A stretch of DNA of 64,000 nt, taken from positions 4,622 to 68,621 of the forward strand of contig JAKLFP010000009.1 of the NCBI GenBank assembly GCA_022711115.1, in the 5' to 3' direction. The notes under the pieces were generated by a model. The model searched no databases. It saw nothing but the letters and a program-made list of their open reading frames with translations, and had not been told where the DNA came from. This document shows, one piece after another, positions 3,149 through 40,650 of this stretch. The DNA is from Candidatus Omnitrophota bacterium. Its GTDB lineage: Bacteria > Omnitrophota > Omnitrophia > Omnitrophales > Aquincolibacteriaceae. The first letter of the stretch is position 1. Each line of letters opens with the position of its first letter. Made by a program: the position numbers and the translations under genes.

Positions 3149-3195
3149 GAAATACCACCCAAATTATGAATGAAGATGTAAGACGTAAGAGGTCA
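3122..3195. repeat. Direct repeat DR1a (74 bp), partner at 4485..4558; flanks DUF4143 ATPase copy 1
   Basis: 2 mismatches in 74 bp. Includes the start codon and first 8 codons of the large gene plus its 5' leader. Confidence 0.85.
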
Positions 3196-4353
3196 TCAGG
3201 CCAAAGGTTTTAGGGTTATAAGATCATGCACAGAAACTGCCCGGACTTTTTTTGCCAAATCAAATGTCTTTTCACCGCAGTGGACGATACAGAGACGCGA
3301 AAGTTTTAAGTCCTTGAGCGCATGATACATCGAGGGAGTCATAGACGGAGCACTCGTCCGTTTGATCTCAAAACCATAGCGGAAGCGGCCCCGGCTGATG
3401 AGCAAATCAAGCTCACTGCCCGCATGGGTAGCCCAACTAAAACAATCTTCTCGATTCACTTTTAAAATCCGAATAAGCTGGCTTACGATGAATCCCTCCC
3501 ACGAAGCGCCGATTTTGGGATGGCGTTCCAGATCGATTTCATTTTTGATGCCGAGTAAAGTATGCAGGATCCCTGTGTCCGCAACATAAATTTTGGGCGC
3601 TTTCACCTGCCGTTTGGAAATATTTTCATGCCAAGCGGGCAATTGCCGTATCACAAAAGCACCGGTCAATATATCGAGATAATGCCTGACGGTCGTATCC
3701 GCCAATCCAAAAGCCCTCGCAAATTCCGACGAATTCCATCGCTGACCATGGTAATGGGCAATCATATGCCAAAATCTGCGAAGCGTCTCAGCCCGCACCG
3801 TAATCCCCAACTGCGGCAGATCTCTTTCAAGAAATGTTTTAATAAAATTGCGCCGCCACAGTTCTGACTGCGCAAGCGATTTTGCCAGATAAGAATCCGG
3901 GAAGCCCCCTCTCAACCACAGGCGATCCATAGACTGAATGCCGATTTCCTCAATGTAAAATTCACCCAGTTCATGATAGGCAATCCGGCCGGCCAGGCTT
4001 TCGGATGAAACCTTCAATAAATCCGGAGAGGCACTTCCAAGAATGAGAAACCGGCGAGGGATCTTAGCATCGTCGGCAAGCACTCGAAGCATCGGGTAGA
4101 GGGAGGGTTTTCTTTGAATTTCGTCAATCACCACAAGACCCTGCAAAGATTTTAAAGCAAGCATGGGGTCCGACAAACGAGCGACATCCTCGGGATTTTC
4201 CAAATCAAAATAATGCACCGGCCCCTTAAACGATCTCCCGATCTCTAAAGCGATCGTTGTTTTGCCCACTTGTCGTGCGCCCACAATTCCCACCACCGGG
4301 AATTGCCTTAATAACTTTAAGATGGAAGCCGTCTCACTTTTTCGCTTTATCAT
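3196..4353 (-). CDS. AAA+ ATPase with C-terminal DUF4143 (COG1373 family), copy 1. Start is probably an internal Met of the track ORF 3196..4455.
   Basis: Walker A GARQVGKTT near the N-terminus. C-terminal ELDLLI...FEIK looks like a PD-(D/E)xK nuclease motif. Paralogous to 19216..20358 and 22376..23608. Confidence 0.8.
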   Translation of the reverse strand: MIKRKSETASILKLLRQFPVVGIVGARQVGKTTIALEIGRSFKGPVHYFDLENPEDVARLSDPMLALKSLQGLVVIDEIQRKPSLYPMLRVLADDAKIPRRFLILGSASPDLLKVSSESLAGRIAYHELGEFYIEEIGIQSMDRLWLRGGFPDSYLAKSLAQSELWRRNFIKTFLERDLPQLGITVRAETLRRFWHMIAHYHGQRWNSSEFARAFGLADTTVRHYLDILTGAFVIRQLPAWHENISKRQVKAPKIYVADTGILHTLLGIKNEIDLERHPKIGASWEGFIVSQLIRILKVNREDCFSWATHAGSELDLLISRGRFRYGFEIKRTSAPSMTPSMYHALKDLKLSRLCIVHCGEKTFDLAKKVRAVSVHDLITLKPLA

Positions 4354-4484
4354 GCTAAAACTATACCTTGAAAATTCGGTGTTGTCAACCGAGATTTCAA
4401 TGTCACTTTCCCTTCTATTTTTTATGCTTACCTCTTCCCTTGTCTCCCGTTCCACGATCCACGAACCGCGGATCGGGTTCCGGG

Positions 4485-4558
4485 TTCAGAGTTTTTAGTT
4501 TCGAGTTTCATGACATACCACCCAAATTATGAATGAAGATGTAAGACGTAAGAGGTCA
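4485..4558. repeat. Direct repeat DR1b
   Basis: See DR1a. Confidence 0.85.
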
Positions 4559-4642
4559 GAGGTAAGAGAAAATCTTACTTCTTAATTCTTACTTCTCTAC
4601 TTCTTACTTCTTGATTTACCTCTCCACTTCAGAGTTCCGAGT

Positions 4643-4734
4643 TTCGAGGACCACGTGACGGTGTGCTGGTGTCCTGCCTCTCGTCAGGGACGGTTCTTGC
4701 GACAAGAACCGTCCCTAGCGCGTCCCTCGTCTCT
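4643..4734. repeat. R1 element, partial copy D (core only)
   Basis: Same core. Upstream of DUF4143 ATPase copy 1. Confidence 0.75.
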
Positions 4735-4748
4735 CGCCCCGTTCCCCA

Positions 4749-5993
4749 CTACGCTTCTCTCTTCATCACCGCGACAAGCGCCGCCAGAACCCAGAAATAC
4801 GACGAGACATTATGATAAAAAATTTTTGTCTCATAAAAATTGCTCAACACAAACGCGGGAATACTGCCCAGAAACCCCAGGGCCAGCCCCTTGGCCCACC
4901 GGTCATGCGTCTTGAGGTAGAGCGCGAGCGTGTCCCAAAAGATCTTGATGAGCAGCCACAGGAACACGGCCAATGCCGGCAGTCCCATTTCCGCGCCGAT
5001 CAGCAGATACGTGTTGTGCGCGTCCGTGGAAGCGGCTTTGGACCAGTAATGCACCAGTTTGGCCGGAAACAGATCATAGCCCACGCCCATAAACGGATGT
5101 TCCTTGATCATTTGCATGCCACCCTTGTAGATTTCAACGCGCCCCTGCAGACTCGGGTCCAGGACTTCGCGCACCTCGCCGGCCTGATACCGGCGCTCAT
5201 ACGTCTGGCCGAGCCGGTGCCGAACCCCGTCCGGTAAAAAAGCGGGATTCAAATACAAAAAAATCGAAACCCCGAGCAGTAAAACAAAAAGCAGCCGGCT
5301 CCGCAAAAAGACGATCCCATGCAGCGCGACTGCCAGCGCCAGATAAGCCCCACGCGAAAACGTGCACATCAGGGCCCGCACCATGACCAGAAAAGGGACC
5401 AGCAGCAGCCAATATTTCCGGTCGCGAAAGTTGATCAGAAAAAAACCGAGCATAAGAAACAAGGTGTATGCCAAAAATGCGCCCAGGACATTGGGATCCC
5501 CAAACACCACTTCGATACGGTCCGGCCGCCGCATATACTCCACCAGCGTGTAAACACCGATCAAGCCCGCCACCGCGCACAGGATGACGCAAATTTTTTT
5601 GCCCTCTTCACGGGTTTTCGCCAGATAAAGTACGAGCGTGTAAGCGAAAAAAGGCATCAGCCAGTTCAGATAAAAGGAAAGCGCGGCCTTGCCCAGATAT
5701 TCCGCGCCGTAACTCATGCCGGACAAAATGGAGATGCCTCCGAGCGCCACGAAGCAGAGCATGGGCACTTTAAGCGGATGGGCAACGGACGCGGCGTTTT
5801 TTTCTTCCGCCCGCCGGCGCCACAGAGCCCACCCCGTAAGCAGTAAAAATAAATTAGCAGCGTTAAACACACCCGGCAGGAACGGCAGACTCATCCAGTT
5901 GCTCTGGCTGAACGGCAGGCACGCGAGGAAGCCGTAGAACGGTGTTTGCGCACTACCTAAAAAATCTTTTATTCCGTTAGTGTTTTTTTCCAC
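4749..5993 (-). CDS. O-antigen ligase family (Wzy_C) polytopic membrane protein
   Basis: More than 10 hydrophobic segments. Central periplasmic loop with FSRGAYLALAV and a TDAHNTYL motif typical of Wzy_C/WaaL-like proteins. Confidence 0.7.
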   Translation of the reverse strand: MEKNTNGIKDFLGSAQTPFYGFLACLPFSQSNWMSLPFLPGVFNAANLFLLLTGWALWRRRAEEKNAASVAHPLKVPMLCFVALGGISILSGMSYGAEYLGKAALSFYLNWLMPFFAYTLVLYLAKTREEGKKICVILCAVAGLIGVYTLVEYMRRPDRIEVVFGDPNVLGAFLAYTLFLMLGFFLINFRDRKYWLLLVPFLVMVRALMCTFSRGAYLALAVALHGIVFLRSRLLFVLLLGVSIFLYLNPAFLPDGVRHRLGQTYERRYQAGEVREVLDPSLQGRVEIYKGGMQMIKEHPFMGVGYDLFPAKLVHYWSKAASTDAHNTYLLIGAEMGLPALAVFLWLLIKIFWDTLALYLKTHDRWAKGLALGFLGSIPAFVLSNFYETKIFYHNVSSYFWVLAALVAVMKREA

Positions 5994-6087
5994 AACTTGC
6001 TTTCTTCTCCGAGTTCCACAAACTACGGCCCACGCGCCACATGGTACTTGGTGCGTGATACGCTATTTCAGTTCTTTCTCTTAAATC

Positions 6088-6121
6088 AATATGATTATTA
6101 GACATAATTATTATGATTTTT
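6088..6121 (+). promoter_or_regulatory. Pair of ATATGATTA-like direct repeats upstream of ORF6N gene 1 (candidate operator)
   Basis: aatATGATTAtt...attATGATTttt 40-70 bp upstream of the ATG. The same motif pair is at 16089..16124 upstream of ORF6N gene 2. Confidence 0.35.
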
Positions 6122-6162
6122 AATCTTGACTCTAAAATCTCCTTGCTCTAGACTTCCCCGAT

Positions 6163-6735
6163 ATGGATCATCTAATCCCATCCGCTGTCATAGAATCAAA
6201 GATCTTTTTAATACGCGGTCAAAAGGTTATGCTCGACAAGGATTTGGCAAGCCTGTATGGCGTATCCACGGGTCATTTGAACCAAGCCGTTAGCCGCAAT
6301 TTGTCTCGTTTTCCTGAGGACTTCATGTTTCAACTCAGTGATCAGGAATTCAAAAACTTGATGTTCCATTTTGGAACATCAAGCGGAGGCGGCATGCGCC
6401 GGCCAAAAGTCACTGCAAACTTGATATCACAAAATGTGACATCAAATTGGGGCGGCACCCGGAAAAAGCCACGCGCTTTTACGGAGCACGGCATTTTAAG
6501 CCTCTCCTCCGTCCTCCAAAGTCAAAGAGCGATTCAAGTCAATATTGCGATCATGCGAGCCTTCGTTCAGTTAAGACAAATGATTGCCCACCACAAAGAA
6601 TTCGCGATAAAACTAACCGAGCTCGAACAACGCATTGAAAAACACGACCATGAAATTTGTGAAATTTTTGCTTACCTTCGAAAAATATTGTCGACCGAAG
6701 AAAAACCAAAGCGACAGATCGGTTTTCATCCATAA
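6163..6735 (+). CDS. ORF6N (KilA-N-like) domain protein
   Basis: MLDKDLASLYGV...LNQAVSRNLSRFPEDFMF matches the ORF6N domain signature. Paralog of 16163..16675, with the same C-terminal KPKRQIGFHP. Confidence 0.75.
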   Translation: MDHLIPSAVIESKIFLIRGQKVMLDKDLASLYGVSTGHLNQAVSRNLSRFPEDFMFQLSDQEFKNLMFHFGTSSGGGMRRPKVTANLISQNVTSNWGGTRKKPRAFTEHGILSLSSVLQSQRAIQVNIAIMRAFVQLRQMIAHHKEFAIKLTELEQRIEKHDHEICEIFAYLRKILSTEEKPKRQIGFHP

Positions 6736-6842
6736 ACCTCGGCGCTTTTTGCCGCACCGGTAACGCAAGAAACAAGATGTAAGACGTAAGAGGCTAGAAA
6801 TCTGAAGTGCGAAACATGAAACAGGAAATAATGAAACACAAA

Positions 6843-7244
6843 TCATGTGAAAGATCTCCAGTGATCGTGCAATTTAAATAATTTTGCGCCTAATTCTTCA
6901 TAACCCGCCAAAAGTTTTTCGTAGGAATCAGAAAGCAAATAGCCACAATTCAATGAGAACAACAACCAGCACTTTGTTTCCTCGCAAGAACCAATGGCAT
7001 CGATCAGGTGCCGCTTAAAAAGCTCAGTATAACGACGCTTACCCCACCTTTCTGCAATGTTTGCAGCTGACGAACGTGACGACCTGCGCCTCTGATCCAC
7101 CAGTGAATATTTCTCTTCCTTCGGAAACGTCTTCGTCGCTTCAAAAATTTTTATCGCCAGTTCATGGGCTAATTGATAAACATTCAAATCCCTGAATGTC
7201 TTTATCGCTTTTTCTTTTTTTATACTTCCTACTTCGGACTTCAT
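6843..7244 (-). CDS. Four-helix-bundle protein (23S rRNA intervening-sequence protein family, TIGR02436-like)
   Basis: FRDLNVYQLAHELAIKIF...ANIAERWGK core motif. Three paralogs in the window. Confidence 0.8.
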   Translation of the reverse strand: MKSEVGSIKKEKAIKTFRDLNVYQLAHELAIKIFEATKTFPKEEKYSLVDQRRRSSRSSAANIAERWGKRRYTELFKRHLIDAIGSCEETKCWLLFSLNCGYLLSDSYEKLLAGYEELGAKLFKLHDHWRSFT

Positions 7245-7283
7245 ACTTCTTTTTTTCTCCTTAATTCTTAATCCTGCCTTTTC

Positions 7284-8459
7284 TTAATTCTTATTTCTTG
7301 CTTCCAAATAAATCTCCTCATGCCGCTTCACCATCTGCGCCACGCTGAACTCGCTGCGGACCCGGTCGAGCGCATTGGCGACGAGATTTTTTCTGAGCTC
7401 CGGGCTATCCGCGAATCGCGCCAACGCCTGCGCAAGGACTTCCGGATTTCCAACCGGGATCAAAAGACCGGTCTTTTCATGCTCCACACATTCGCTCACG
7501 CCGCCGACATCCGTGGCCGCCACCGGCACACTCGCCGCCATGGCCTCCAGCACGGTCATGGGAAAACCCTCGCGTTCCGAACAGAGCACAAACGCGTCCA
7601 TGGCCGCGTAAAGCCCCGGCGTATCATCGCAAAATCCCGCGAAAATAATCTCATGCCTGAGATCCCAACCCCGCGCTTTTTCCTCCAGGGCTCGCCGCTC
7701 CGGACCGTCGCCGATCACAAGACCGCCGACATTGCGTCCCGATTTCTTAAGCCGCGCGACCGCCTCGATAAAATCCTCCTGGCGTTTCTGCGGCACCAGC
7801 CTGCCCACGGTCCCGATCAGAAACCGGTTCCTGGGAACCCTGAACCGCTCCCGCACCTTGTCACGTTCCTTGTCCTGCTTAAAAAATTCCGTGTCAATCC
7901 CGTTATAAATCACCGTTGTCCTGGACCGGAGCGCCGGCACCTTGTCTAAATAAAACGCCTCTACTTTTTTACTCACGCAAATCACTTTGCGGCTGATGCC
8001 TGCCACGATCCGGTCTATCCAGAAATGATAAGGTCTTTTCCAAAGGTCCACATTGTGCTCGGTCATGACAATCGGCACGCCGGTGATCCATGCCATCAGG
8101 CGCCCCCACAGATTCGAGGTAAAAAGATGCGAGTGGATCACATCGATCTTTTCGCGGCGTATCAGCTCCCGAAGTCTGCCCAAAAACCCGAAATCCACGC
8201 GCCCTTTTTTCCCGAGCGCTTCGATTTTGATGCCGGCCGCTTCCGCGCGAAAGGCATAGCGCCCTTTTTCATTCAAACAGCAGATCACGGGCTCGAATTT
8301 CTGCCGGTCCAGCCCCGCCGCGAGATTCAGCACCACCTGCTCCGCCCCGCCCTGGTCCAGGGACCAAATTAAATACAAAATCTTGATTTTCTTTGAACCG
8401 TTTTCACACTTCATTGAAAGCCCCTTGAATATTTCCTTGTCAAAATCAAAACCAACCAC
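7284..8459 (-). CDS. Glycosyltransferase family 4 (GT-B, group 1)
   Basis: C-terminal EGFPMTVLEAMAASVPVAATDVGG...E motif (EX7E region). Start is probably the internal Met MKCENGSKKIKILYL, about 8414. Confidence 0.85.
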   Translation of the reverse strand: MVGFDFDKEIFKGLSMKCENGSKKIKILYLIWSLDQGGAEQVVLNLAAGLDRQKFEPVICCLNEKGRYAFRAEAAGIKIEALGKKGRVDFGFLGRLRELIRREKIDVIHSHLFTSNLWGRLMAWITGVPIVMTEHNVDLWKRPYHFWIDRIVAGISRKVICVSKKVEAFYLDKVPALRSRTTVIYNGIDTEFFKQDKERDKVRERFRVPRNRFLIGTVGRLVPQKRQEDFIEAVARLKKSGRNVGGLVIGDGPERRALEEKARGWDLRHEIIFAGFCDDTPGLYAAMDAFVLCSEREGFPMTVLEAMAASVPVAATDVGGVSECVEHEKTGLLIPVGNPEVLAQALARFADSPELRKNLVANALDRVRSEFSVAQMVKRHEEIYLEARNKN

Positions 8460-8735
8460 GCGGATTAAGGATTCAGAATTAAGGAATACGCAAAGCAGAA
8501 GTAGGAAATAAGATGTATGAAGTAAGATTTTTCATATTTCCTACCTCCGACCTCATACTTCAGTTTTCCCTTCTCCATCCCCCATTCCTCACTTGCGCCG
8601 ATGCGCAAGTACCACACCGTGGCGCCCAAGGTTAACGCCTACGGCGACGGCCTTCCCGCATTCGGCATTCCGAATTCTCCATTTCGCCTCTCACCGTTAC
8701 GCCCCACTCCCCACATGGTACTTGGTCCGTGCTAC

Positions 8736-9539
8736 TCAATACGCTCTTTCAATCGAACTGCGGACCAAATCCCGGTCAAAAAGCCTCCGCTCCTGCTCGT
8801 CTTCCAGAAAACGCTCCACATCCGCTTGGGCCGCTTCAAAATCAATGCCCTCGATCCTCTCGAGCAAAAACGCCTTAAACGTTTCTCGGCTCAAATCCAG
8901 GCGCTTTTTCTCCGTCTGTTCAACGGCGTTATTCAAGAAAGTGAAATTCGGGACCGTTTTCCGCCCGACATACCAGATAAAATCATACCAATCCCGTCCC
9001 TTGTTATAGCCGCGGAAAAAACAGGCGTGCAGTTTGCCCGCGAACATGGACGGCAGGTCGTAATGCGCGACCCCGAAAAGATGGATCTTGTTCAGGATCG
9101 TATGAAGGATCACGGCCCCTTCCGGCGGACGCGTGTCCATGTCCCATTTGATCATCAGCTTTTCATCCGGCATGGCCGCCACGCCGAGGTCCTTGAACAG
9201 TCCGGGGAATTTGATCATCAGACTCTTGACCGCGCCCTGCTCCCGGGACTTGCCCTCCGCCTCGATCCCGTAAGACCGGTAGGATTTCAATAACGCTTCC
9301 GCGGCATCCCCAAACACGAACTCTTTTCCCGGAATCAGAGAAAAATCCAGATCCTCCGAAAAACGGCGCAAGTCAAAAAGGATCCTCAGCGCCGTCCCGC
9401 CAAGAAAAGCGGCAAAATCAAACATGCCCTTGTCACTCATGATCTTCAGGCACAAGACCTGAAGATATTCCCGGGCCATGTTCTTTTTCTGCTCCGCGGT
9501 CATCCCTTTCTGAAATTGATTCTGGATCAGATCGATCAT
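8736..9539 (-). CDS. abiEii: AbiEii/AbiGii-family nucleotidyltransferase toxin (type IV TA), pair 1
   Basis: FLGGTALRILFDLRRFSEDLDFSL nucleotidyltransferase motif (GG[TS]A...SEDLDF). ATGA overlap with the upstream AbiEi gene at 9536-9539. Confidence 0.85.
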   Translation of the reverse strand: MIDLIQNQFQKGMTAEQKKNMAREYLQVLCLKIMSDKGMFDFAAFLGGTALRILFDLRRFSEDLDFSLIPGKEFVFGDAAEALLKSYRSYGIEAEGKSREQGAVKSLMIKFPGLFKDLGVAAMPDEKLMIKWDMDTRPPEGAVILHTILNKIHLFGVAHYDLPSMFAGKLHACFFRGYNKGRDWYDFIWYVGRKTVPNFTFLNNAVEQTEKKRLDLSRETFKAFLLERIEGIDFEAAQADVERFLEDEQERRLFDRDLVRSSIERAY

Positions 9540-12321: not shown

Positions 12322-12384
12322 TTTTTATTATTCCTCTTTTTTGTTATGAAGCACGCGCTCGCAGTTCCAAATCCCGGATGAAAA

Positions 12385-12437
12385 GGTGACAGTCACCAAA
12401 AAGTGACTGTCACTTCACGCCGTTACATCATTCCGCC
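12385..12437. repeat. REP2 palindromic element (GGTGACAGTCAC-N6-GTGACTGTCAC...), copy 1
   Basis: Near-identical 52-bp copy at 18769..18820. Contains an 11-bp perfect inverted repeat. Confidence 0.75.
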
Positions 12438-13490: not shown

Positions 13491-13701
13491 CGATGCTCCT
13501 TTTTGAGCTTATCGCAATTTGCGATAACCTGCTCTGGGTCCAAAACTTCGAGTTTTATACTTTTAAAATTCTAAATTCGAATCTCGAAGCACGAAACAAA
13601 CTATCTTGAAAGCAAGAAATCCTAATTTCTAAATTCGAAACAAATCTCAAATTCCAATTTCTGAAACAACAAAACCCCTTGTTTGGGATTTCTGATTTAG
13701 G

Positions 13702-13753
13702 CATTGTTATTTGTTTCGTATTTCAGATTTAGTGCTTCGGATTTTTTTCATTG
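13702..13753. repeat. About 50-bp direct repeat (partner at 14110..14157) flanking the four-helix-bundle gene 13729..14112
   Basis: About 85% identity. Copy 1 encodes the gene C-terminus and stop. Copy 2 retains a degenerate version of the same 3' end. Confidence 0.7.
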
Positions 13754-14112
13754 TCCGTTTTTTTAAGTATAGCTCCAAAGATACACATAAGCTCCGTGGC
13801 TTCTTGCGCCAAAGCATCTTTCGTTTTCTTAGCAAGATCGTCGTCGACTGAGATCAAGCTGAGCCAATATTTGCTTTCTTTGGCTTCTTTTTTACAAATT
13901 TTAATTCGCATCACAAAATCCTTCTTGCTTAACGAATCATTGGCTTCAATGTAATTCGCCCCGACAGATCCTGACGAACGAACTAGTTGTTTTGCATCTT
14001 CAATATTGGACAAACTGCGCGGTAGTCTTTTAAGAAATTCACGGGTATTTTTCGCAAATCTCAAAGTTCGATCTTCTAAGTCGTATTGTTTGTGATTTTC
14101 CGATTTATTCAT
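13729..14112 (-). CDS. Four-helix-bundle protein (TIGR02436-like)
   Basis: EDRTLRFAKNTREFLKRLP...SVGANYIEANDSLSKKDF motif. Flanked by a 50-bp direct repeat. Confidence 0.8.
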   Translation of the reverse strand: MNKSENHKQYDLEDRTLRFAKNTREFLKRLPRSLSNIEDAKQLVRSSGSVGANYIEANDSLSKKDFVMRIKICKKEAKESKYWLSLISVDDDLAKKTKDALAQEATELMCIFGAILKKTDNEKNPKH

Positions 14113-14157
14113 TGTTATTTGTTTCGAATTTCGTATTTAGTGTTTCGGATTTCATTG
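14110..14157. repeat. Partner of the 13702..13753 repeat
   Basis: See above. Confidence 0.7.
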
Positions 14158-17307: not shown

Positions 17308-17533
17308 TCGGCGTGTTCACCGTTACGTCCCGCGCCCCGTGTCTCGTTCCCCGTTCCCCGTTCCCCGTTCCGGGTTACGAGCACCACGCGTCGGTGTGCC
17401 GGTGTCCTGCCTCTCGTCAGGGACGGTTCTTGTCGCAAGAACCGTCCCTAGCGCGTCCCTCGTCTCGTGTCCCGAATTTAAAGCTTCGGATTTTGGGCCT
17501 TCGTTACGAAGGAACGTATTGCCACCCTTCATC
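17308..17533. repeat. R1 MITE-like element, full copy A (226 bp)
   Basis: About 95% identical to 23689..23914. Core has a perfect 13-bp inverted repeat (GGGACGGTTCTTG / CAAGAACCGTCCC) plus a second hairpin (CCTTCGTTACGAAGG). Confidence 0.8.
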
Positions 17534-17659
17534 ACCTATTACCCACTTACCGGTCGCATTTCCTACTTCTGAATTCTTACTCCTTATTCCTTACTACATA
17601 ATTCTTTCTGTCACGCCCAGCGCCTGGAAACCAGATGGAAACCGTTTGATTTCCTATTG

Positions 17660-18685
17660 TCAACTTTCTCGCCGGGCACGATTCACAATAAAAGAGACAC
17701 TCGGCGACATACGACAGGGCTCAATTCGAATCTGAGGATGATTCTTGGCAAAAACCCGGAAAACCTCATCCGCAAAACCCTGTCCGACGCCCCGGACACC
17801 GCTGAAATCCATCATGATCCGCTTAAATTTTTCCAGACCGAACAGAAGCCGGCGCGCTTCGGACCGGGAGACGTATTCTCCCGATGTTTTAGAGAACCGG
17901 ATCTTGACCTCGGTCTTATCAAAAACAAGGTCGCTATCGGTGTAGGCGCCAAAGAGCTTCTTGAGATCCTTGCGGGATCTTTGACGTAATGAGAAGGTGA
18001 CTTTCGTCCCTTGGAGGGGCTTCCTATCCAGCAGCGAGACGTCCTGGATAAGATTATTGACATCCAGCTTCAAGGCCCTGCTTTCCAGAACAAAGTGATC
18101 CGCGATGCGGGAAGTGAAAAAAATGCCTTGCCCGGAATGCCGCTCCGGCGCTGTGGTCTGTTTTCCTTTCAGCAAATGTTCCGCAGCTTCAAAGGCATCC
18201 CTCATCTTGAATTTTCTGCGAATGCTTTCAAAAGCCCCGATCCCGCGGTCCGAAACCGTGAAAGTAAGGATCCCTCCCTCCCATCGGACCTCGATCCTGA
18301 CCCTGGCCGCCTTGGAGTGGTCGATGGCGTTGTTGAGCATTTCCGTAAAGGCGTACTGAACGATCTTGAACGCCGATGGAGACAATTGCCTCTTTAAGTG
18401 CGTCCGGTGCGCCCATGCCTCAAAAACACGATCTTCTTCAAGCCCTCGAATTTTATAAACAAGAATGATGGACGGAGTTTTCAAAGAAGCCGCTTTTTTA
18501 GGGTTGAACGGAATATACCGCGCGCCGCGCGTCACCCCCTCCCTGAGAAGCTGCCTGGACGCGACAAGTTCCCGCAAGTGTTTCGCCGCGGCCTGACGGG
18601 AGATCCCGGAAAAGCGGACCACATCGGCGGCCCGGATCGCTTTTTTTTGACGCACAAAACGGAGAATTTTTTCTTTATTCTTCAT
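17660..18685 (-). CDS. HTH plus histidine-kinase-like ATPase (HATPase_c) protein with C-terminal DUF4325 (STAS-like)
   Basis: N-terminal HTH (RFSGISRQAAAKHLRELV). N-box-like FTEMLNNAIDHSKA. C-terminal DFSGVRGVGQGFADEVFRVF typical of DUF4325. Confidence 0.6.
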   Translation of the reverse strand: MKNKEKILRFVRQKKAIRAADVVRFSGISRQAAAKHLRELVASRQLLREGVTRGARYIPFNPKKAASLKTPSIILVYKIRGLEEDRVFEAWAHRTHLKRQLSPSAFKIVQYAFTEMLNNAIDHSKAARVRIEVRWEGGILTFTVSDRGIGAFESIRRKFKMRDAFEAAEHLLKGKQTTAPERHSGQGIFFTSRIADHFVLESRALKLDVNNLIQDVSLLDRKPLQGTKVTFSLRQRSRKDLKKLFGAYTDSDLVFDKTEVKIRFSKTSGEYVSRSEARRLLFGLEKFKRIMMDFSGVRGVGQGFADEVFRVFAKNHPQIRIEPCRMSPSVSFIVNRARRES

Positions 18686-18764
18686 AAGAAAAGACTACCT
18701 GATGGGAAACCAATTGTAAACCTTAAAATAAATAATTGTAAACCACGCCTCACGCACTTGCGCC
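18685..18764. repeat. Direct repeat DR2a (80 bp, identical), partner at 20534..20613; flanks a block containing DUF4143 ATPase copy 2
   Basis: Perfect 80-bp identity. Begins at the start codon region of gene 17660..18685. Confidence 0.85.
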
Positions 18765-18768
18765 CAAA

Positions 18769-18820
18769 GGTGACAGTCACCCAAAAGTGACTGTCACTTC
18801 ACGCCGTTACATCATTCCGC
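18769..18820. repeat. REP2 palindromic element, copy 2
   Basis: See copy 1. Confidence 0.75.
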
Positions 18821-19203
18821 ATTCGGCGTTCGGCATTCCCTCGTCTCGCGCCCCGTGCCCCGTCTGTGGCATTTTCAATCAAAATTTTCCTGATCTTCAA
18901 CGTCTTCCCGGTCAGGATCTGTAAGGGGTCGATTACGTTCTTTCTGTTTTGTAAACCAACCAGACGCCCGGCCTCGGTCATGATTTTAATGTTTGTACCG
19001 TTAAGCTTCTCGACAGCGATCGTGTCTGGATCGTCAAAGACCCATTCGAAACCAGGGCTCACCCGGTCGACCGCGAGACGCACCTCCGGAGCACGCAAGC
19101 CGTACCGGCTGCCACATTGCGCAAACTGATCCTTATTGACCGGAAAGGTCTGGCGAAGGAACGGGCATTCGATCTTTGGGAAATCAGTCAGTGTTTCCAT
19201 CAT
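18799..19203 (-). CDS. Hypothetical protein, 134 aa; possibly a truncated ATP-dependent ligase-like nucleotidyltransferase
   Basis: VEKLNGTN resembles ligase motif I (KxNG). The ORF ends in the REP2 palindrome. Weak. Confidence 0.3.
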   Translation of the reverse strand: MMETLTDFPKIECPFLRQTFPVNKDQFAQCGSRYGLRAPEVRLAVDRVSPGFEWVFDDPDTIAVEKLNGTNIKIMTEAGRLVGLQNRKNVIDPLQILTGKTLKIRKILIENATDGARGARRGNAERRMRNDVTA

Positions 19204-19215
19204 TTTTCTTATGGA

Positions 19216-20358
19216 TCAAAGGAGCTTACCGCTCCAAAGACGCTCGAGGAATTCTTGCCAGGGTAAGATTTCGATCCCTCCGGGGATGCTCCGGGGTTCC
19301 CTCTCAGTACAAACCACCACAGCCTTTTTTACGGGACCGTCTTCGAGAAGAGCTCGAAGGCCCCTCAGGTCCCCTTCATGAACTTTTCCGGACTTGATCT
19401 CGACCGCCGCTTCTTTTTCGCCAAGAATAAAATCCACTTCCTGTTTCGCTGCGGTACGCCAGTAGCGGATCGTCATCTCCGGCTCCCGGTAGGCCTGGTA
19501 CGCGCGCAATTCCATGAGGATGAAATGCTCGAACGCTTTTCCGAAATCGCTGTTACCCGGAACGGGATGCCGGCCGGCCAGAAACCCCGCGACGCCGACG
19601 TCAAAAAAATAAAATTTTTCGGCAAGAATCATGCGCCTGTTCTCTGACTTTGTCCAAGGGGGGATACGAAAACCCAAAAAAGTATCCTCGAGAATGTCAA
19701 AATACAAACGGACCGTCCGCTGCGAAACGCCGCACTCGCGGGCGATGTTGGTATAGTTCAGGATTTCGCTCGAAGTCAGCGTGGCGACCCGCAAAAAATC
19801 AGAAAAAGAAGGAATGCTCTGCGTCAGCGCTTCCGCGGCGATCTCTTCTTTCAGGTAATCCGCGACATAGGAGCGAAGATCCTCGGCGGGGCTCTCTGAA
19901 AGAAAATGGGGTGGCAGCATCCCGGTGAAGAGCGCCTTTTCCAATTGGAAGCCCGTGACCTCGGAAAAGGATAGCGGCAACATCACACGCCGCCACGCCC
20001 GTCCTCCCAACAAATTGGCATGCCCTCTTCGGAGCTTCCTGGCGCTGGATCCCGTCAAAAGAAATTGTGCTCCCCGTTCTTCGATCAACCACTGAACCTC
20101 GTCGAGAAGCCGCGGTATTTTTTGAACTTCGTCGATCACGATCATTTTTCCGTATTTTTCGTACCGCTCGCGCAAAAGCGCCGGTCGCGCCGCATATTCG
20201 GCAAAAACATCCGTTTGAAGCAGATCGATCAGCTTAACGCCTTTAAGGTGTTTGCGGATCCAAAAGCTTTTTCCTGCTTTACGCGGACCCCACAAAAAGC
20301 AGGATTTTCCCTTAGGGAGGTGAAGGTCGACTTGGCGCTCTATGATTTTTGTACTCAT
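19216..20358 (-). CDS. AAA+ ATPase with C-terminal DUF4143 (COG1373), copy 2
   Basis: Walker A GPRKAGKS. C-terminal EVDFILGEK...VEIK looks like a PD-(D/E)xK motif. Confidence 0.8.
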   Translation of the reverse strand: MSTKIIERQVDLHLPKGKSCFLWGPRKAGKSFWIRKHLKGVKLIDLLQTDVFAEYAARPALLRERYEKYGKMIVIDEVQKIPRLLDEVQWLIEERGAQFLLTGSSARKLRRGHANLLGGRAWRRVMLPLSFSEVTGFQLEKALFTGMLPPHFLSESPAEDLRSYVADYLKEEIAAEALTQSIPSFSDFLRVATLTSSEILNYTNIARECGVSQRTVRLYFDILEDTFLGFRIPPWTKSENRRMILAEKFYFFDVGVAGFLAGRHPVPGNSDFGKAFEHFILMELRAYQAYREPEMTIRYWRTAAKQEVDFILGEKEAAVEIKSGKVHEGDLRGLRALLEDGPVKKAVVVCTEREPRSIPGGIEILPWQEFLERLWSGKLL

Positions 20359-20533
20359 GGCGTTATATTATCGTGATAAATTTACAGTTGTCAACATATT
20401 ATTTTTCTTGTTTTTTGCCATATCTAGAGAGAACAGGAAGCTCAATACGTACCACGGGCCACGAGCCACGGGCCACGCCCCACGTTCCGCGTACCACGCA
20501 CCAAGCACCACGTACCAGGTACCATATCGTACC

Positions 20534-20613
20534 TAAGAAAAGACTACCTGATGGGAAACCAATTGTAAACCTTAAAATAAATAATTGTAAACCACGCCTC
20601 ACGCACTTGCGCC
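20534..20613. repeat. Direct repeat DR2b
   Basis: See DR2a. Confidence 0.85.
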
Positions 20614-20649
20614 GATCCGCCCTCACCCCGCGCCCCTCGCCCCGTTCCC

Positions 20650-20768
20650 CGTTCCGGGTTACGAGGACCACGCGTCGGTGTGCCGGTGTCCTGCCTCTCG
20701 TCAGGGACGGTTCTTGCGACAAGAACCGTCCCTAGCGCGTCCCTCGTCTCGTGTCCCGGGTTTCGGGA
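20650..20768. repeat. R1 element, partial copy C (core only)
   Basis: Same 13-bp IR core. Upstream of DUF4143 ATPase copy 2. Confidence 0.75.
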
Positions 20769-20787
20769 AGAGCATGAAACAGAAATG

Positions 20788-21531
20788 CTATCCGGGCAGA
20801 TGTTTTTCCAGCTCTGAGATTAACGTTTTGTTGAAGTTCTTGAGCAGGATGTGCTGGCTGACCGGAAGGAACTGCTTAAGTTCGCTTTTAAGATCGAGTC
20901 TCTGTTTTGACGCCACGCTCACTAACTTGGCCTTGATTGTTTTATCCTTACCAAACACCGGCCCGAACGCCATCCGGCTTCGCAGGATGAAATAAAGGTC
21001 ATAAAAATCCCTGGCCTTGCTGCGTGTCAAGGCAGCCTCGACTTTTTCTCTCACCAGATCCTGCTCGTTTAAATGATAAAGTGTATAGGCCGGCACAAAG
21101 TCGGATTGAACAAGAGCCGCGGTACCGCCTTTCCTTTGGGCCTTGTTGCGCAGGGACACTTCCATCTGAATCCCGCTTTGATATCCATCCCCCGACAACT
21201 GAAAGACCGCCAAGTAACCCCCTGATGTTTTTTTGGACTCCTCGATCACCGCTTGGATCCCTTGCGCTTCCATGCTCACTAAAACAGCTTCCACGACCCC
21301 CTCGATCTGGCGGATGGATATTCCGACCCCGTTAAAGTCCAGGTCCTCCGAAAAGCGCGGACTCCCATAAACAATCCGCAGAGCCGTGCCGCCTTTAAAA
21401 AGAAGTTTTTCGGAGTGCTTTTCCCGGTAGAGTTCCGAAAGAAAAATGTGCTGGAAGTATTCTTTCACCACATGATCAAGGGTCGTTTGATATTGATCCG
21501 TGATCTGACGCAGCGCTTGGACGCCGATCAT
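20788..21531 (-). CDS. abiEii: AbiEii-family nucleotidyltransferase toxin, pair 2
   Basis: FKGGTALRIVYGSPRFSEDLDFNG motif. 4-nt overlap with upstream AbiEi. Confidence 0.85.
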   Translation of the reverse strand: MIGVQALRQITDQYQTTLDHVVKEYFQHIFLSELYREKHSEKLLFKGGTALRIVYGSPRFSEDLDFNGVGISIRQIEGVVEAVLVSMEAQGIQAVIEESKKTSGGYLAVFQLSGDGYQSGIQMEVSLRNKAQRKGGTAALVQSDFVPAYTLYHLNEQDLVREKVEAALTRSKARDFYDLYFILRSRMAFGPVFGKDKTIKAKLVSVASKQRLDLKSELKQFLPVSQHILLKNFNKTLISELEKHLPG

Positions 21532-22161: not shown

Positions 22162-22449
22162 CTACCGCAAACCATCCTCCTTGACTATAAAAATCTCATG
22201 CCCGCCATCCCTCGCCCCGTTCCCCGTTCCGCTCCCCGTGTCTCCTGCCCCTTGCCCCGCGAATTCTCGCTTGTCCAGAATTCGCAGACGCATAATCAGC
22301 GCCGCGAGGATCCAGAGATAACTGGAGACTTCCTGCGAATCAAGCCGCGAGCCGAACATGTTGCTCAGAGCAAAATCAAAGCAGAGAGAAATGGCAATTA
22401 TGGACAGAATGGCCAATGAGGCCCATTTGCCTGGAATTTGAAACCACAA
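22162..22449 (-). pseudogene. Duplicated C-terminal fragment of the O-antigen-ligase-like gene 23889..25454
   Basis: Encodes ...SNMFGSRLDSQEVSSYLWILAALIMRLRILDKREFAGQGAGDTGS, identical to the C-terminus of the 521-aa ligase. A 135-bp nucleotide direct repeat (22231..22365) matches 23961..24095. Confidence 0.6.
22231..22365. repeat. Direct repeat DR3a (135 bp), partner at 23961..24095; flanks DUF4143 ATPase copy 3 plus R1
   Basis: About 95% identity. It is the 3' coding end of the ligase gene. Confidence 0.8.
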
Positions 22450-23608
22450 GCCCCGCGGGACTACGGCCTCCCGAGAGCTTAAGCCATGCTTTTAATGACG
22501 CTGCATGCTGGTCCGTCACCGTTGAAGACAATTTAAATTCTACGGGGAATATCTTGTTGGAAACTTCCACCAAGAGATCGACCTCGAAACCATCGATACT
22601 TCTCCAGAAATAAAGACTTGCCGGATCAAGAAAAGCTGAGAAGCGTTTGATGAACTGAGTCACACATGCCGTTTCAAAAAGCGCCCCGGCCATCGGTCCC
22701 TGCAAAAGGTGCTCCTCATCCTGCAATCCAACCAAATAACAGACAAGCCCCGTATCCATGAAATAACACTTTGGGGTCTTGACAATCCTTTTGCCGAAAT
22801 TTCGATGATAGGGATAAAGAAGGTGGATCAGAGAACTGGATTCCAAAAAAGACACCCAAGACTTGATGGTCGGAACCGTGGCACCTACGTCCCTTGCCAA
22901 AGTGGAATAATTCATTTCCTGCGCCGTGCGACTTGCCAGGAGCCTCACAAAACGCTCGAACTCATTCAAATTTGAAGTTCTTATATTGCCCCTCACATCC
23001 CGGTCAATATAACTTTGCAAATAACTTGAAAACCATAACTTTAAAGAAACTTTTTTCTTGGTAAAAATTTCCGGATACCCGCCACGCAAAAGCCATTGAC
23101 CGCAAGAAAGAGATTTATCTACCGGGGTGCCCGCGGAATATAAATGCCGGATGAAAGATTCCGCCGTCCTAAGCTTTACGCGTAGATGATGGTTCATTTC
23201 ACTCAAAGAAAATGGGAACAAGGTGAGAATCGCAACGCGCCCGGCCAAGGACTCCCCGACATTCCGCATCAATGGAAAAGCCTGCGAACCGGTTAAAATC
23301 CATTGCCCCGGTTTCCGGTCACGGTCAATGGCAGCTTTGATATAAGAAAGAAGCTGGGGAGCATGCTGAATTTCATCAATGATAACCGGATTCGGATATT
23401 TTGTTAAAAAACCGCGCGGATCATGAATCGCCAAGGAGCGGGTATCCATTTCATCCAGAGAAACATAACGATACCGCTCCCCTCCCGCTTTTTGAACCAA
23501 GGTGCTCTTCCCCGCTTGACGGGGACCAGTCACCACAACGGATGGGAACGTTTTTAAAGCCTTACCCAGAGACTCTTCGAGCAGTCGATGAATATACATG
23601 GCGACCAT
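22376..23608 (-). CDS. AAA+ ATPase with C-terminal DUF4143 (COG1373), copy 3
   Basis: Walker A GPRQAGKST. C-terminal FEVDLLVEVSNK...VEFK looks like a PD-(D/E)xK motif. Confidence 0.8.
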   Translation of the reverse strand: MVAMYIHRLLEESLGKALKTFPSVVVTGPRQAGKSTLVQKAGGERYRYVSLDEMDTRSLAIHDPRGFLTKYPNPVIIDEIQHAPQLLSYIKAAIDRDRKPGQWILTGSQAFPLMRNVGESLAGRVAILTLFPFSLSEMNHHLRVKLRTAESFIRHLYSAGTPVDKSLSCGQWLLRGGYPEIFTKKKVSLKLWFSSYLQSYIDRDVRGNIRTSNLNEFERFVRLLASRTAQEMNYSTLARDVGATVPTIKSWVSFLESSSLIHLLYPYHRNFGKRIVKTPKCYFMDTGLVCYLVGLQDEEHLLQGPMAGALFETACVTQFIKRFSAFLDPASLYFWRSIDGFEVDLLVEVSNKIFPVEFKLSSTVTDQHAASLKAWLKLSGGRSPAGLVVSNSRQMGLIGHSVHNCHFSLL

Positions 23609-23688
23609 TTTAAAGTACTACTTTAAAATTGCAATCCTTTTTTATCCCTCTTCATTTTCAAGGTCAACGCCTACGGCCTTGGTACCAT

Positions 23689-23914
23689 GTGCCGGCGTAT
23701 CGGCGTGTTCGCCGTTACGTCCCGCGCCCCGTGTCTCGTTCCCCGCTCCCCGTTCCGGGTTACGAGCACCACGCGTCGGTGTGCCGGTGTCCTGCCTCTC
23801 GTCAGGGACGGTTCTTGCGACAAGAACCGTCCCTAGCGCGCCCCCCGTCTCGTGTCCCGAATTTAAAGCTTCGGATTTTGGGCCTTCGTTAAGAAGGAAC
23901 GTATTGCCAACCAT
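23689..23914. repeat. R1 element, full copy B
   Basis: See copy A. Lies between DUF4143 ATPase copy 3 and the ligase 3' end. Confidence 0.8.
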
Positions 23915-25454
23915 CCTCACCTATTTTCCACGTCCCGCCCCCTGCCCCGTTCCCCGTCTCGCTCCCCGTGTCTCCTGCCCCTTGCCCCGCGAATTCTCGC
24001 TTATCGAGAATTCGCAAGCGCATAATCAGCGCCGCGAGGATCCAGAGATAACTGGAGACTTCCTGCGAATCAAGCCGTGAGCCGAACATATTGCTGAGAA
24101 GAAGCCCGAAAATACCTCCGAGCCAACCGAGCGCAAGCGCTTTTGCAAAAGGATCTTTGGTTGTGAGATAAAGTTTTCGCGTATTCAAAAAAATAAGCAG
24201 AATAATCCATAGGAAAATAACGAGCGCCGGGATCCCCATTTCTCCGGCAATAATAAGATAAGTATTGTGCGCATCCCACTTCCTATCGACTTCCAGATAG
24301 TATTTAATGACGATCGGAAAGAGCCCGTAGCCAACGCCGAATATTGGATTATCTTGGACCATCTGGAGCCCTGCACGCCAAATTTTCACCCGTTGCTGAG
24401 AGCTCGCGTCCAGATCGCCTTCATTGTATTCCTCTTTCAGGGTCTCGCTGTAATCACCCTGTGATTTCACGGTTTGACCCATTCGGTACTGGATCCCCGA
24501 GGGTAACAGTGTAGGATTCAAATAAACAAAGAAACCGAGCAAGAGAAGAAACATGAAAAGTATTTTATTCCGGAAAAAAGTGATCGCAAAAAGTCCCAGT
24601 GCGAATGCCAGATAACCGCCCCGCGAAAACGTGACCATGATGCCGCGGAAGCACAACAGAAACGGAATGAGCAAAAGCCAATACTTTGCTTTTTTCATAT
24701 TTAACAGAAAAAAACCAAACACAAGGAACATATAATAATTAAAAAATGCCGCCAACATATTGGGTTGTTCGCAAATCCCCCCGATCCTGGATTTTTCCAA
24801 ACTACCCATCTCCCCCTGATCGATATATGTCCAGATGGCCATCAATGCGGCCACGGTGGTGACGATCATCATGATAATCGATACATTTTTGATCGTGCCG
24901 CGATCCTTCACAGTATTTAATACCAGGAAGTAAAACAAAATCGGCGTGATCCATCGCTTATAATCGATCAAGATCCCGTTAATGCTCGAGATATCATAGA
25001 AACTGCCCCTGGCAATTGAAATAAAACCAATCAGGAGAAATAAAAAAACCGGCAAATTGAGCGATGTCCTCAGCCACAGCGGTTCGCCTTCCTTGTACCG
25101 GCCGCTCACCCAGACAAAGATCATGAAGATCATCAGGATATTGGTAAAGTTCAAAGCCGGCAAAAAATCACCGGCAAGCTCCCTGCTGAAAGGCATGTAG
25201 GCTACCAGGGCGTACGTCACAATCTCCGGCTGTTTGATTCCCTTGAACAACAAAAACATCCCGGCCACTGCGGTCATCCCCAAAATAAGGGCCTTGGGAA
25301 GTTGGACTTCCTTGATGATCAGATACGCGAAAAAGCACACCGCGCCCGTGACCCAGAGATAGGTTTTGCTATCGGGTTTTGGTAACGCTTTCTCACTCGC
25401 GTTCTTATTCATCGTTGTTCTTTCTGGTTCCACGATCCACGGCCCACGAACCAC
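23889..25454 (-). CDS. O-antigen ligase family (Wzy_C) membrane protein
   Basis: Many TM segments. FSRGGYLAFALGLFA and WDAHNTYL motifs, Gly-rich C-terminal tail. The first ~14 codons of the track ORF (a GTG start at 25452-54) lie in CGTGG heptad repeats, so the real start is probably the ATG about 25412 (MNKNASEK). Confidence 0.75.
   Translation of the reverse strand: MVRGPWIVEPERTTMNKNASEKALPKPDSKTYLWVTGAVCFFAYLIIKEVQLPKALILGMTAVAGMFLLFKGIKQPEIVTYALVAYMPFSRELAGDFLPALNFTNILMIFMIFVWVSGRYKEGEPLWLRTSLNLPVFLFLLIGFISIARGSFYDISSINGILIDYKRWITPILFYFLVLNTVKDRGTIKNVSIIMMIVTTVAALMAIWTYIDQGEMGSLEKSRIGGICEQPNMLAAFFNYYMFLVFGFFLLNMKKAKYWLLLIPFLLCFRGIMVTFSRGGYLAFALGLFAITFFRNKILFMFLLLLGFFVYLNPTLLPSGIQYRMGQTVKSQGDYSETLKEEYNEGDLDASSQQRVKIWRAGLQMVQDNPIFGVGYGLFPIVIKYYLEVDRKWDAHNTYLIIAGEMGIPALVIFLWIILLIFLNTRKLYLTTKDPFAKALALGWLGGIFGLLLSNMFGSRLDSQEVSSYLWILAALIMRLRILDKREFAGQGAGDTGSETGNGAGGGTWKIGEDGWQYVPS
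23961..24095. repeat. Direct repeat DR3b
   Basis: See DR3a. Confidence 0.8.
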
Positions 25455-25699
25455 GCACTTCGCACCAGACGGCAGTATGCACTCGGCAGCCTACGGAATG
25501 CTGATTGCTGAATTCGGAATGCAGAATACCGGGTCCGGGTGCTGAATTCCGCATTCGCCATTCGTCATTCCGCATTCGCCATTCGTCATTCCGCATTCCT
25601 CCGCCTCCTACTCCTGAATCCTTAGTCCTTAGTCCCGTTTCTCGTTCTTACTCCTTATTCCTTAATCCTGATCTGTCTTATTTCCTGATCTTTCCTTGG

Positions 25700-40530: not shown

Positions 40531-40650
40531 ATGAAATATGAAGTACGAAGCCGGATGTATAAAAAAATGATCCGCTGTTCGCTTTTTCCTACTTCATACG
40601 TCTTACCTCATACTTCGTACCTCTTACCTCTTACTTCTTAATCCTTACTT
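40531..40650. repeat. GAAGTA(A/T)GA / TCTTACTTC palindromic intergenic repeat (representative copy)
   Basis: Purine-rich arm and complementary pyrimidine-rich arm. Related copies at 4500..4625, 8505..8570, 15379..15440, 41700..41790, 44641..44705 and 47845..48000. Half-copies at 6772..6800, 7240..7305, 12440..12470, 17560..17600 and 25600..25680. Confidence 0.7.

Follow-up and report, generated by a model that had tools for sequence, protein, structure and literature searches.

The 64-kb window analysed here (the whole stretch of DNA, from contig JAKLFP010000009.1 of a Candidatus Omnitrophota bacterium) encodes three proteins of the DUF4143 family, and the gene of the second of these, copy 2, lies between two copies of an 80-bp direct repeat. 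The two 80-mers, at 18685-18764 and 20534-20613, are identical at 80 of 80 nucleotides, as an earlier note on this DNA had claimed. Its account of what they enclose is likewise borne out: a REP2 repeat, a 134-aa open reading frame (ORF) and the AAA-DUF4143 gene are all located between the 80-mers. The enclosed block runs from 20533 to 18765 (1769 bp) and is read on the minus strand, in the order heptamer array, own promoter, DUF4143 gene, RNA-ligase remnant and REP2. The features of the block and of its borders are as follows.

17660-18685, minus strand: regulator of 341 aa with an N-terminal helix-turn-helix (HTH), a GHKL/HATPase_c domain and a STAS-like DUF4325 domain (Pfam matches).
18685-18764, minus strand: left 80-mer, the predicted regulator promoter, operator-like repeats and leader (repeat and promoter analysis).
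18766-18820, no strand: REP2 double palindrome, GGTGACAGTCACC ... AGTGACTGTCACT, forming the downstream end of the block; a 98% copy lies at 12382-12436.
18799-19203, minus strand: RNA-ligase pseudogene, the 134-aa ORF (homology to the PF09414 family and alignment to the relative L026).
18813-18863, no strand: degenerate heptamer array between the ligase remnant and REP2 (tandem-repeat analysis).
19216-20358, minus strand: DUF4143 copy 2, 380 aa, with AAA_14, a DUF4143 winged HTH and a PD-(D/E)xK region (Pfam, PADLOC).
20367-20394, minus strand: predicted sigma-70-like promoter of the DUF4143 gene itself, TTGACA-16-GATAAT, 11 of 12 matches (promoter scan).
20447-20524, no strand: heptamer array of 11 degenerate units with the plus-strand consensus ACGTACC; it makes up the upstream part of the block.
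20534-20613, minus strand: right 80-mer, the apparently duplicated regulator promoter and leader, pointing into the heptamer array and the DUF4143 gene.
20617-20836, no strand: R1 repeat copy with a 31-nt palindrome, AGGGACGGTTCTTG..CAAGAACCGTCCCT, terminator-like, following the AbiEii gene (20788-21531) and marking the outer border of the presumed target site.

Identity between the 80-mers stops abruptly at both ends: beyond one end TATTCTTCA stands against TATCGTACC, and beyond the other C-AAAGGTG against GATCCGC. The left 80-mer terminates on the A of the minus-strand ATG (CAT at 18683-18685) of the regulator gene, which agrees with the claim that the repeat starts at the 5' end of a neighbouring gene, and REP2 ends the block 1 nt from it. 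The R1 copy that was said to abut the right repeat begins 3 nt past it. With up to three mismatches allowed, the 80-mer occurs only at these two places in the 64-kb window (shuffled sequences expect 0), and is thus not the common dispersed repeat that had been set beforehand as the refuting outcome.

The same order of 80-mers and block is found in independent assemblies: an 82-kb SPAdes contig, to which the window is 100% identical, and a 50-kb MEGAHIT k141 contig and a 14-kb JGI contig that both come from other samples. Since the k of 141 exceeds the 80-bp repeat and the order is the same across samples, the arrangement is no assembly artefact, and the two copies are genuine. Two variant-strain Logan k=31 contigs (99.2% and 99.5% identity) start exactly 30 nt within the 80-mer, as expected of a genuine two-copy repeat. 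The duplication is present in all contigs or samples carrying these genes, at least seven in number, including a strain that is 0.5-0.8% diverged (L024, L025). The perfect identity had been read as the sign of a recent event. A relatively recent one it may well be, but the duplication is already present in the diverged strain and is therefore older than the split of the sampled strains, so that identity is no sign of a very recent event. At a divergence of 0.5-0.8%, zero differences over 80 bp are expected about half the time; gene conversion among intergenic modules, as with the REP2 copies that are 98% identical, could be another way of keeping the 80-mers identical.

Read on the minus strand, the left 80-mer holds a predicted -35 element TTTACA (18742-18737) and a -10 element TACAAT (18718-18713) separated by an 18-nt spacer. 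These are held, respectively, by two GGTTTACAATT direct repeats (18734-18744 and 18712-18722; 22-nt period), and the second of them is followed by a 27-nt leader that ends on the A of the regulator ATG. The right 80-mer now lies 175 nt upstream of the ATG of DUF4143 copy 2. A metagenome scan for the exact GGTTTACAATT-N11-GGTTTACAATT core returned 12 loci. Four are regulator homologues (L009, L011, L013 and L014); the other eight, in unrelated contexts, were set aside as chance or other biology. The four homologues have 70-77% nucleotide identity, carry the GGTTTACAATT pair 12-27 nt before the start codon and share a similar leader (GTTTxC.ATC.xGTAx..CTTTTxTxATG), with L014 aligning to the 80-mer at 66 of 80 nt. 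In three of the four (L009, L013 and L014) the promoter region homologous to the 80-mer is single-copy. As homologous promoter, repeats and leader stand in a fixed position before the regulator homologues, the 80-mer belongs to the regulator and not to the DUF4143 block. Judging from these alignments, it is the regulator's native promoter, operator-like repeats and leader rather than a dispersed element.

In the fourth homologue, L011 (Ga0265297_10046412), the regulator promoter region is itself duplicated, at 392-568 and 2699-2897 in gene orientation (177-199 nt, 81% identity). Between these copies stand the regulator and a gene for a DUF1016-like nuclease; downstream of the second copy is hsdM of a Type I restriction-modification (RM) system. 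Its sister L009, 96% identical to near the 3' end of the regulator, has a single copy and other downstream genes. The second, diverged copy by the hsdM operon indicates that duplication of the regulator's control region is recurrent, with a cause that may lie in mechanism or in selection. Folding of the 80-mer gave no hairpin or inverted-repeat structure and was no better than that of shuffled sequences (z=0.57), and the 80-mer has no Rfam match, no tRNA and no attC-like palindrome. The 80-mer pair was also considered as a template and variable repeat of the kind found in diversity-generating retroelements; this was set aside, as there is no reverse transcriptase and the copies are identical.

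DUF4143 copy 2 matches AAA_14 with 70.4 bits and DUF4143 with 114.1 bits (above the gathering score), and PDC-S01 with E=2.5e-55. Residues G29 and K30 (Walker A), D76 and E77 (Walker B) and R120 (arginine finger) are intact, as is the nuclease signature E277, E307-x-D309 and E320-x-K322, and all of these are invariant across 18 sequences of 21-94% identity. By its sequence, copy 2 matches PDC-S01, which PADLOC carries as a candidate single-gene defence system. PD-(D/E)xK is the class to which the family is assigned (PMC3424549; PMC12988326). Among candidate defence systems PDC-S01/DUF4143 ranks fourth in frequency; bacteria and archaea together carry tens of thousands of copies, and experimental validation is pending (PMC12988326). 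Sequence searches found no relatives of DUF4143 with a solved structure. The coding content of the block consists of the DUF4143 gene and the ligase pseudogene only. We found no integrase, transposase, tRNA, terminal inverted repeats or att-like structured site in or at the 1769-bp block, and the nearest integrase and resolvase genes lie 32 kb away.

The 134-aa ORF begins 12 nt after DUF4143 copy 2 and corresponds to the N-terminal ~108 aa of an RNA ligase family of ~230 aa (PF09414). It has 195 homologues, with up to 72% identity over residues 1 to ~108, some of them annotated as PF09414, and it keeps the nucleotidyl-transfer motif I (KxNG) as EKLNGTN. The earlier description of this ORF as ligase-like thus stands as far as homology and motif go, but the ORF is a pseudogene with an internal deletion of ~420 bp. 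This can be seen from the 6.8-kb contig L026, which encodes a DUF4143 protein 94% identical to copy 2 and a full-length ligase. L026 aligns gap-free to 20408-18899 of the window at 90.5% nucleotide identity, the homology beginning at 20408, just upstream of the DUF4143 gene's own promoter, and 19203-18899 being homologous to codons 1 to ~101 of the L026 ligase gene. At a pair of GGGRAGAC microhomologies the window ligase has lost the ~420 bp in between; its final ~40 nt are kept (18911-18872), and after the deletion its ORF runs out of frame into the heptamer array. By this deletion and frameshift relative to L026, the 134-aa ORF does not contain the full-length catalytic domain of ~230 aa.

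The DUF4143 gene of L026 lies between the two copies of a 78-nt direct repeat (92% identity) that consists of the first 77 nt of the ligase gene. The intact ligase and the duplication of its 5' end suggest that DUF4143 first inserted upstream of the ligase gene. Elsewhere the ligase homologues are solitary with no DUF4143 neighbour, and a ligase is absent from all 80 other DUF4143 loci, which makes the pair look like a historical accident. We considered DUF4143 and the RNA ligase as a functional two-gene module and rejected it, ligase homologues occurring without DUF4143 and L026 alone pairing them. From the alignments, the ligase ORF is best described as the remnant of an earlier target gene and not as a functional partner.

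The earlier note had likened the architecture of copy 2 to that of copy 1. This holds for copies 1 and 3 and also for DUF4143 genes of unrelated genomes. The other two units in the window are:

3108-4558, minus strand: DUF4143 copy 1 unit, with the gene at 3196-4455 and repeats at 3108-3195 and 4471-4558.
22201-24099, minus strand: DUF4143 copy 3 unit, with the gene at 22376-23608, an R1 copy, and repeats at 22201-22369 and 23934-24099.

The repeat of copy 1 (88 nt, 93% identity) consists of 47 nt of upstream sequence and the first 41 nt of a PcRGLX-like gene that starts at 3148. That of copy 3 (166/169 nt, 93% identity) corresponds to the 3'-terminal part of the Wzy-like gene 23889-25454. Direct repeats made from a neighbour's start or stop region thus bracket each of the three DUF4143 genes in the window. 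The three copies share only 25% identity, which points to independent acquisitions. The copy 3 repeat leaves a 95-aa pseudo-ORF at 22162-22449, and a scan of viral contigs with copy 3 gave no matches. Beside copy 1, the real gene at 1-3148 on the minus strand encodes a PcRGLX-like polysaccharide lyase/hydrolase of >1049 aa that runs off the window start, and the 537-aa plus-strand ORF at 1496-3109 is its shadow ORF.

We surveyed 80 loci of the copy-2 subfamily (L027-L106) from species-representative genomes. The phyla covered include Omnitrophota, Elusimicrobiota, Planctomycetota, Verrucomicrobiota, Nitrospirota, Desulfobacterota, Spirochaetota and Acidobacteriota, among others. The subfamily has about 61-80% protein identity across more than 10 phyla, which indicates extensive horizontal transfer. 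Every ORF of at least 100 aa was scored for direct repeats of at least 28 nt and at least 85% identity within 500 nt of both ends. With the window included, tight flanking repeats were found for 10 of 87 DUF4143 genes and for 9 of 518 ORFs of other kinds (odds ratio 7.3, p=7e-5); when the window and L026 are left out the counts are 7/83 and 5/457 (p=7e-4), so that DUF4143 genes are enriched for flanking repeats ~7-8 fold over other ORFs. In the first version of this test, two of the three flanked 'control' genes turned out to be DUF4143 paralogues, and so did a flanked ORF of the later all-ORF scan (L087, 282-1409). In an independent set of 25 IMG/VR loci, whose DUF4143 genes are distant ones, 4 of 27 were flanked versus 0 of 168, the four being two distinct cases, each in two related contigs (L111, L112); one example is an 81-nt repeat (96%) from the 5' end of the downstream gene.

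The distance from the upstream repeat end to the DUF4143 ATG is 15-326 nt, which is space enough for a promoter, and the downstream repeat lies 0-57 nt after the stop codon in nine of ten tightly flanked cases, the exception being a gene of L111 (3330-4523) with 263 nt. Among 12 DUF4143 insertions the repeats show no relatedness in sequence and no common att core, which argues against site-specific recombination. Under lenient realignment their lengths range from 29 to ~200 nt or more. A fixed ruler of ~80 bp, to which the apparent clustering of 78, 80, 81, 83, 84 and 88 nt seemed to point, was dropped when realignment spread the lengths from 29 to >200 nt. Tandem gene duplication was rejected as the repeat source as well: adjacent paralogues are 20-26% identical, versus 88-100% for the repeats. 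Three such tandem DUF4143 paralogues (20-26% identity) lie at 3100-7990 of L111/L112, two of them flanked by 146-220-nt direct repeats, one of which is the 5' coding end of a downstream metallophosphoesterase-like gene. The copy-2 subfamily is often met on very short metagenome contigs (1.2-2 kb), which is consistent with frequent horizontal transfer and assembly-breaking flanks. GTDB species representatives gave no copy-2 match of at least 81%, so that the species of the window is either missing among them or has a representative without the gene.

In L093, an Elusimicrobia metagenome-assembled genome (JAHFCA010000025.1), two unrelated DUF4143 genes at 5806-9118 form nested insertions. An 84-nt sequence, S, is intact upstream of DUF4143-A, and only S[1-29] lies directly downstream of A. 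After S[1-29] come a 1792-bp unit with DUF4143-B, an 83-nt repeat of 100% identity made of the A 3' end and S[1-29], and then S[30-84]. Removing unit B and one 83-nt repeat restores S-A-S, and since this deletion restores an uninterrupted S, the 83-nt repeat was created by the insertion of B and did not pre-exist. On this reconstruction, L093 is the internal equivalent of an empty site for another DUF4143 insertion.

The 80-bp repeat of copy 2 is probably a long target duplication, produced when a 1769-bp segment inserted into the promoter/leader region of the regulator; we put the probability of this reading at roughly 0.6. We infer the insertion step from the bracket structure, the assignment of the 80-mer to the regulator and the family-wide pattern. 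The ancestral order would have been AbiEii, R1 terminator module, 80-mer (promoter, GGTTTACAATT repeats, leader) and regulator. In a first step, which the alignment shows and which is common to L026, DUF4143 inserted upstream of an RNA-ligase gene. In a second, a segment consisting of promoter, DUF4143, ligase and a tail ending in REP2 would have inserted between the R1 module and the regulator, with 80 bp duplicated. The ligase gene lost its ~420 bp in a third step, before or after the second, as the alignment again shows. The duplication spans promoter, repeats and leader up to the ATG, and the regulator thereby keeps a complete control region.

Insertion with long target duplication of RM gene complexes was reportedly described by Nobusato et al. 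in 2000. In these cases the repeats are >30 bp and of variable length, and the insert contains no mobility gene (PMC2853133). The repeats often span translation starts or stops, every type of system is represented, even a Type IV nuclease gene on its own, and such repeats flank RM genes significantly more often than average genes (PMC2853133). Double-strand breakage is suspected as a common property, the mechanism being not established (PMC2853133). By analogy with the RM systems, the duplication may originate from a double-strand break or from widely staggered breaks, possibly on two sister copies, whose ends would be joined to incoming DNA and then filled in, giving long duplications of variable length. 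Insertions that duplicate the start or stop codon of a neighbour would survive as the neighbour stays intact.

The DUF4143 cases resemble those of the RM systems in several respects: a nuclease defence gene is inserted without transposase or integrase, the repeats are unrelated, variable and >30 bp, the neighbour is left intact, the cases occur across phyla and include single genes, and flanking repeats are enriched over average genes. They differ in that the cargo is DUF4143/PDC-S01 with no methyltransferase, that the insert contains a decayed passenger gene, and that copy 2 is known without an empty-site counterpart, all of at least seven contigs being filled. As the cargo is not RM and has no methyltransferase, we file copy 2 under the same insertion mode with a new cargo family. 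A known and mechanistically unexplained insertion mode is thus extended to a new and very abundant cargo family, DUF4143/PDC-S01.

The comparative evidence supports insertion, which for copy 2 is probable, and several points weigh against it. An empty-site genome is the criterion used for RM insertions, with inserts <20 kb (Furuta, Abe and Kobayashi 2010, PMC2853133). Among contigs encoding the exact regulator or DUF4143 proteins or their 90%-cluster variants neither an empty site nor a circular junction was found, all being filled, and single-copy sites are seen only at the non-orthologous loci L009, L013 and L014. Copy 2 is also atypical: its downstream repeat lies 451 nt past the stop codon and the unit includes the ligase remnant and REP2, so that the mobilised segment would not be a minimal DUF4143 unit. 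The block and REP2, a module repeated within the locus, end at the same point downstream, which leaves room for repeat-mediated recombination. The metagenome scan required the exact motif, which makes the conservation of the motif partly a matter of construction; its fixed position before the regulator homologues is not. Detectable flanking repeats are found in only ~10% of DUF4143 genes, and the molecular mechanism of long target duplication is not demonstrated for any system. Finally, a copied promoter or a Campbell-type re-integration, both considered below, would give the same topology as insertion.

In the first of these alternatives the DUF4143-ligase block already lay upstream, and only the 80-bp promoter/leader was copied 1.8 kb further, by template switching or ectopic gene conversion, and kept for regulator control of the defence gene. 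This would fit a repeat boundary exactly at the start codon and the fact that both 80-mers hold a full promoter overlapped by GGTTTACAATT repeats, the right one facing DUF4143. The DUF4143 gene, however, already comes with a near-consensus promoter, situated 140 nt downstream of the right 80-mer, and no mechanism is known for copying exactly a promoter and leader to a place 1.8 kb away. The second homologous promoter copy of L011, which adjoins another defence operon, hsdM, speaks for promoter copying; the same bracketing around DUF4143 genes whose repeats are coding ends without promoter function speaks against it. The product would be the same as that of insertion, the two being separable only by the ancestral state, and we consider the copying of a promoter unlikely.

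Campbell-type integration, in which a circle carrying the block and one 80-mer recombines at the chromosomal 80-mer, either homologously or by a recombinase acting in trans, also seems doubtful to us. Single-crossover integration does leave direct repeats of such length, but the circle must first gain the regulator promoter, which merely moves the origin of the duplication one step earlier. Units flanked by repeats are able to leave a genome as circles and to integrate again in related ones, and a tyrosine integrase (51927-53111) and a serine resolvase (53228-53800) are encoded in the window, 32 kb from the block. A recombinase would nevertheless have to work on an 80-mer without hairpin or inverted repeats, the repeats of different DUF4143 genes share no sequence and hence no common att core, and in L093 an arbitrary, freshly made sequence was duplicated.

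We regard as very unlikely that the block came to lie between pre-existing intergenic repeats by chance, the 80-mer being one more recombination-homogenised module like R1, REP2 and the heptamer arrays. Two other genes of the locus are bracketed by repeats of 50-67 nt and 87-92% identity, namely the Wzz/GNVR gene at 43339-44553 (repeats 43173-43222 and 44589-44636) and the 23S-rRNA-IVP four-helix-bundle gene at 13729-14112 (repeats 13679-13744 and 14086-14152), so that long flanking repeats are not exclusive to DUF4143 genes in this locus; and the REP2 copies are 98% identical though 6 kb apart. The 80-mer, by contrast, occurs only twice in the window, and its homologue in other organisms is the conserved upstream region of the regulator, reaching the start codon. 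Nor does chance placement sit well with the unique coding sequence in the repeats of copies 1 and 3 or with the ~7-8 fold enrichment of flanking repeats around DUF4143 genes. Finally, the joining of two strain variants via the shared 80 bp is scarcely credible: the source is a metagenome and short-k graphs branch at the 80-mer, but several assemblers and samples agree and the k=141 contig spans every junction with k-mers longer than the repeat.

Copy 2 shares some features with other classes of mobile element and lacks others. Like integrase islets and prophages, the insert is bracketed by direct repeats of which one rebuilds the end of a neighbour gene; unlike them, it has no integrase within its 1.8 kb, no tRNA, no shared core and no inverted-repeat arms. 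As with insertion sequences (IS) and DNA transposons, target DNA is duplicated on both sides of a coding unit, but terminal inverted repeats are lacking, as are DDE, HUH and serine or tyrosine transposases, and the duplication is 80 bp. Target duplications of IS elements and transposons are 2-14 bp long (19-26 bp for IS1630). DUF4143 units recall integron cassettes in being compact, mostly single-gene and of one orientation, with short flanks, and in being stacked in an accessory region; they differ in having no attC-like imperfect palindrome, no adjacent IntI or attI and repeats that are copies of neighbour genes. Free-standing homing endonuclease genes are likewise selfish single nuclease genes between host genes without a transposase. 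Homing, however, uses flanking homology to place the gene at the corresponding locus of a relative and does not duplicate the target, whereas the DUF4143 units have differing targets and do show duplications.

A further-reaching idea, which we hold to be improbable, is that DUF4143/PDC-S01 genes are autonomous single-gene mobile elements whose own AAA+/PD-(D/E)xK nuclease promotes insertion through staggered breaks (tens to ~200 bp) at non-specific gene-end targets. The enriched flanking repeats, the tight 3' boundary, the nested insertions and the intact catalytic residues are compatible with such self-mobility.

All genes around the block are on the minus strand, within an exopolysaccharide/O-antigen locus that encodes GT4 glycosyltransferases, Wzy-like, Wzz/GNVR and Poly_export proteins, a flippase and a pyruvyl transferase. 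Interspersed are accessory and defence genes: three DUF4143, four AbiEii (at least one paired with a confirmed AbiEi), three 23S-rRNA-IVP, two ORF6N and two Fic genes, and the HTH-GHKL-DUF4325 regulator. The intergenic spacers are built of common modules, namely R1 after gene ends, REP2 and degenerate period-7 arrays. The R1 family (4634-4741, 17333-17552, 20617-20836 and 23718-23937; 108-220 nt, core 89-93% identity) has a perfect 31-nt palindrome, AGGGACGGTTCTTG-NNN-CAAGAACCGTCCCT, and always stands directly after a gene end; it looks like a shared terminator or REP-like module. The REP2 copies lie 6.4 kb apart, and each has a heptamer array on one side and the next gene's promoter region on the other.

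Degenerate tandem arrays of period 7, also 14 and 21, make up most spacers in 3100-47700 and account for ~35 of 64 TRF rows. Their consensus differs per spacer, as in 20447-20524, 40586-40658, 25546-25599, 4573-4612 and 46641-46700. Over 21 kb, the sole difference between the window and L001, from a second population, is a 21-nt (3x7) indel in such an array (25546-25566). Intergenic heptamer repeats have been reported for Beggiatoaceae, Nostoc and Xanthomonas; a literature report for Omnitrophota was not found. The tyrosine integrase and serine resolvase genes at 51927-53800 adjoin a Type III-like RM region (57533-63909) with a ResIII helicase, a Schlafen/AlbA_2-HATPase_c_4 protein and an N6/N4 methylase, and together these may form a separate mobile island.

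PDC-S01/DUF4143 is abundant and patchily distributed, and its mode of spread has not been described before. That its genes repeatedly sit between long target duplications without a transposase or integrase ties them to the insertion mode of RM systems, and suggests long target duplication as a general property of nuclease-type defence genes. If insertion is indeed driven by the nuclease, this would be a transposase-free mobility that could also explain the insertions of RM systems. In practical terms, a direct repeat made from the end of a neighbour gene is a marker for the boundaries of an insertion and for the pre-insertion state. At the locus described here, the duplication would account for the regulator staying functional after the insertion, and it predicts that DUF4143 copy 2 may be read from a second, regulator-controlled promoter.

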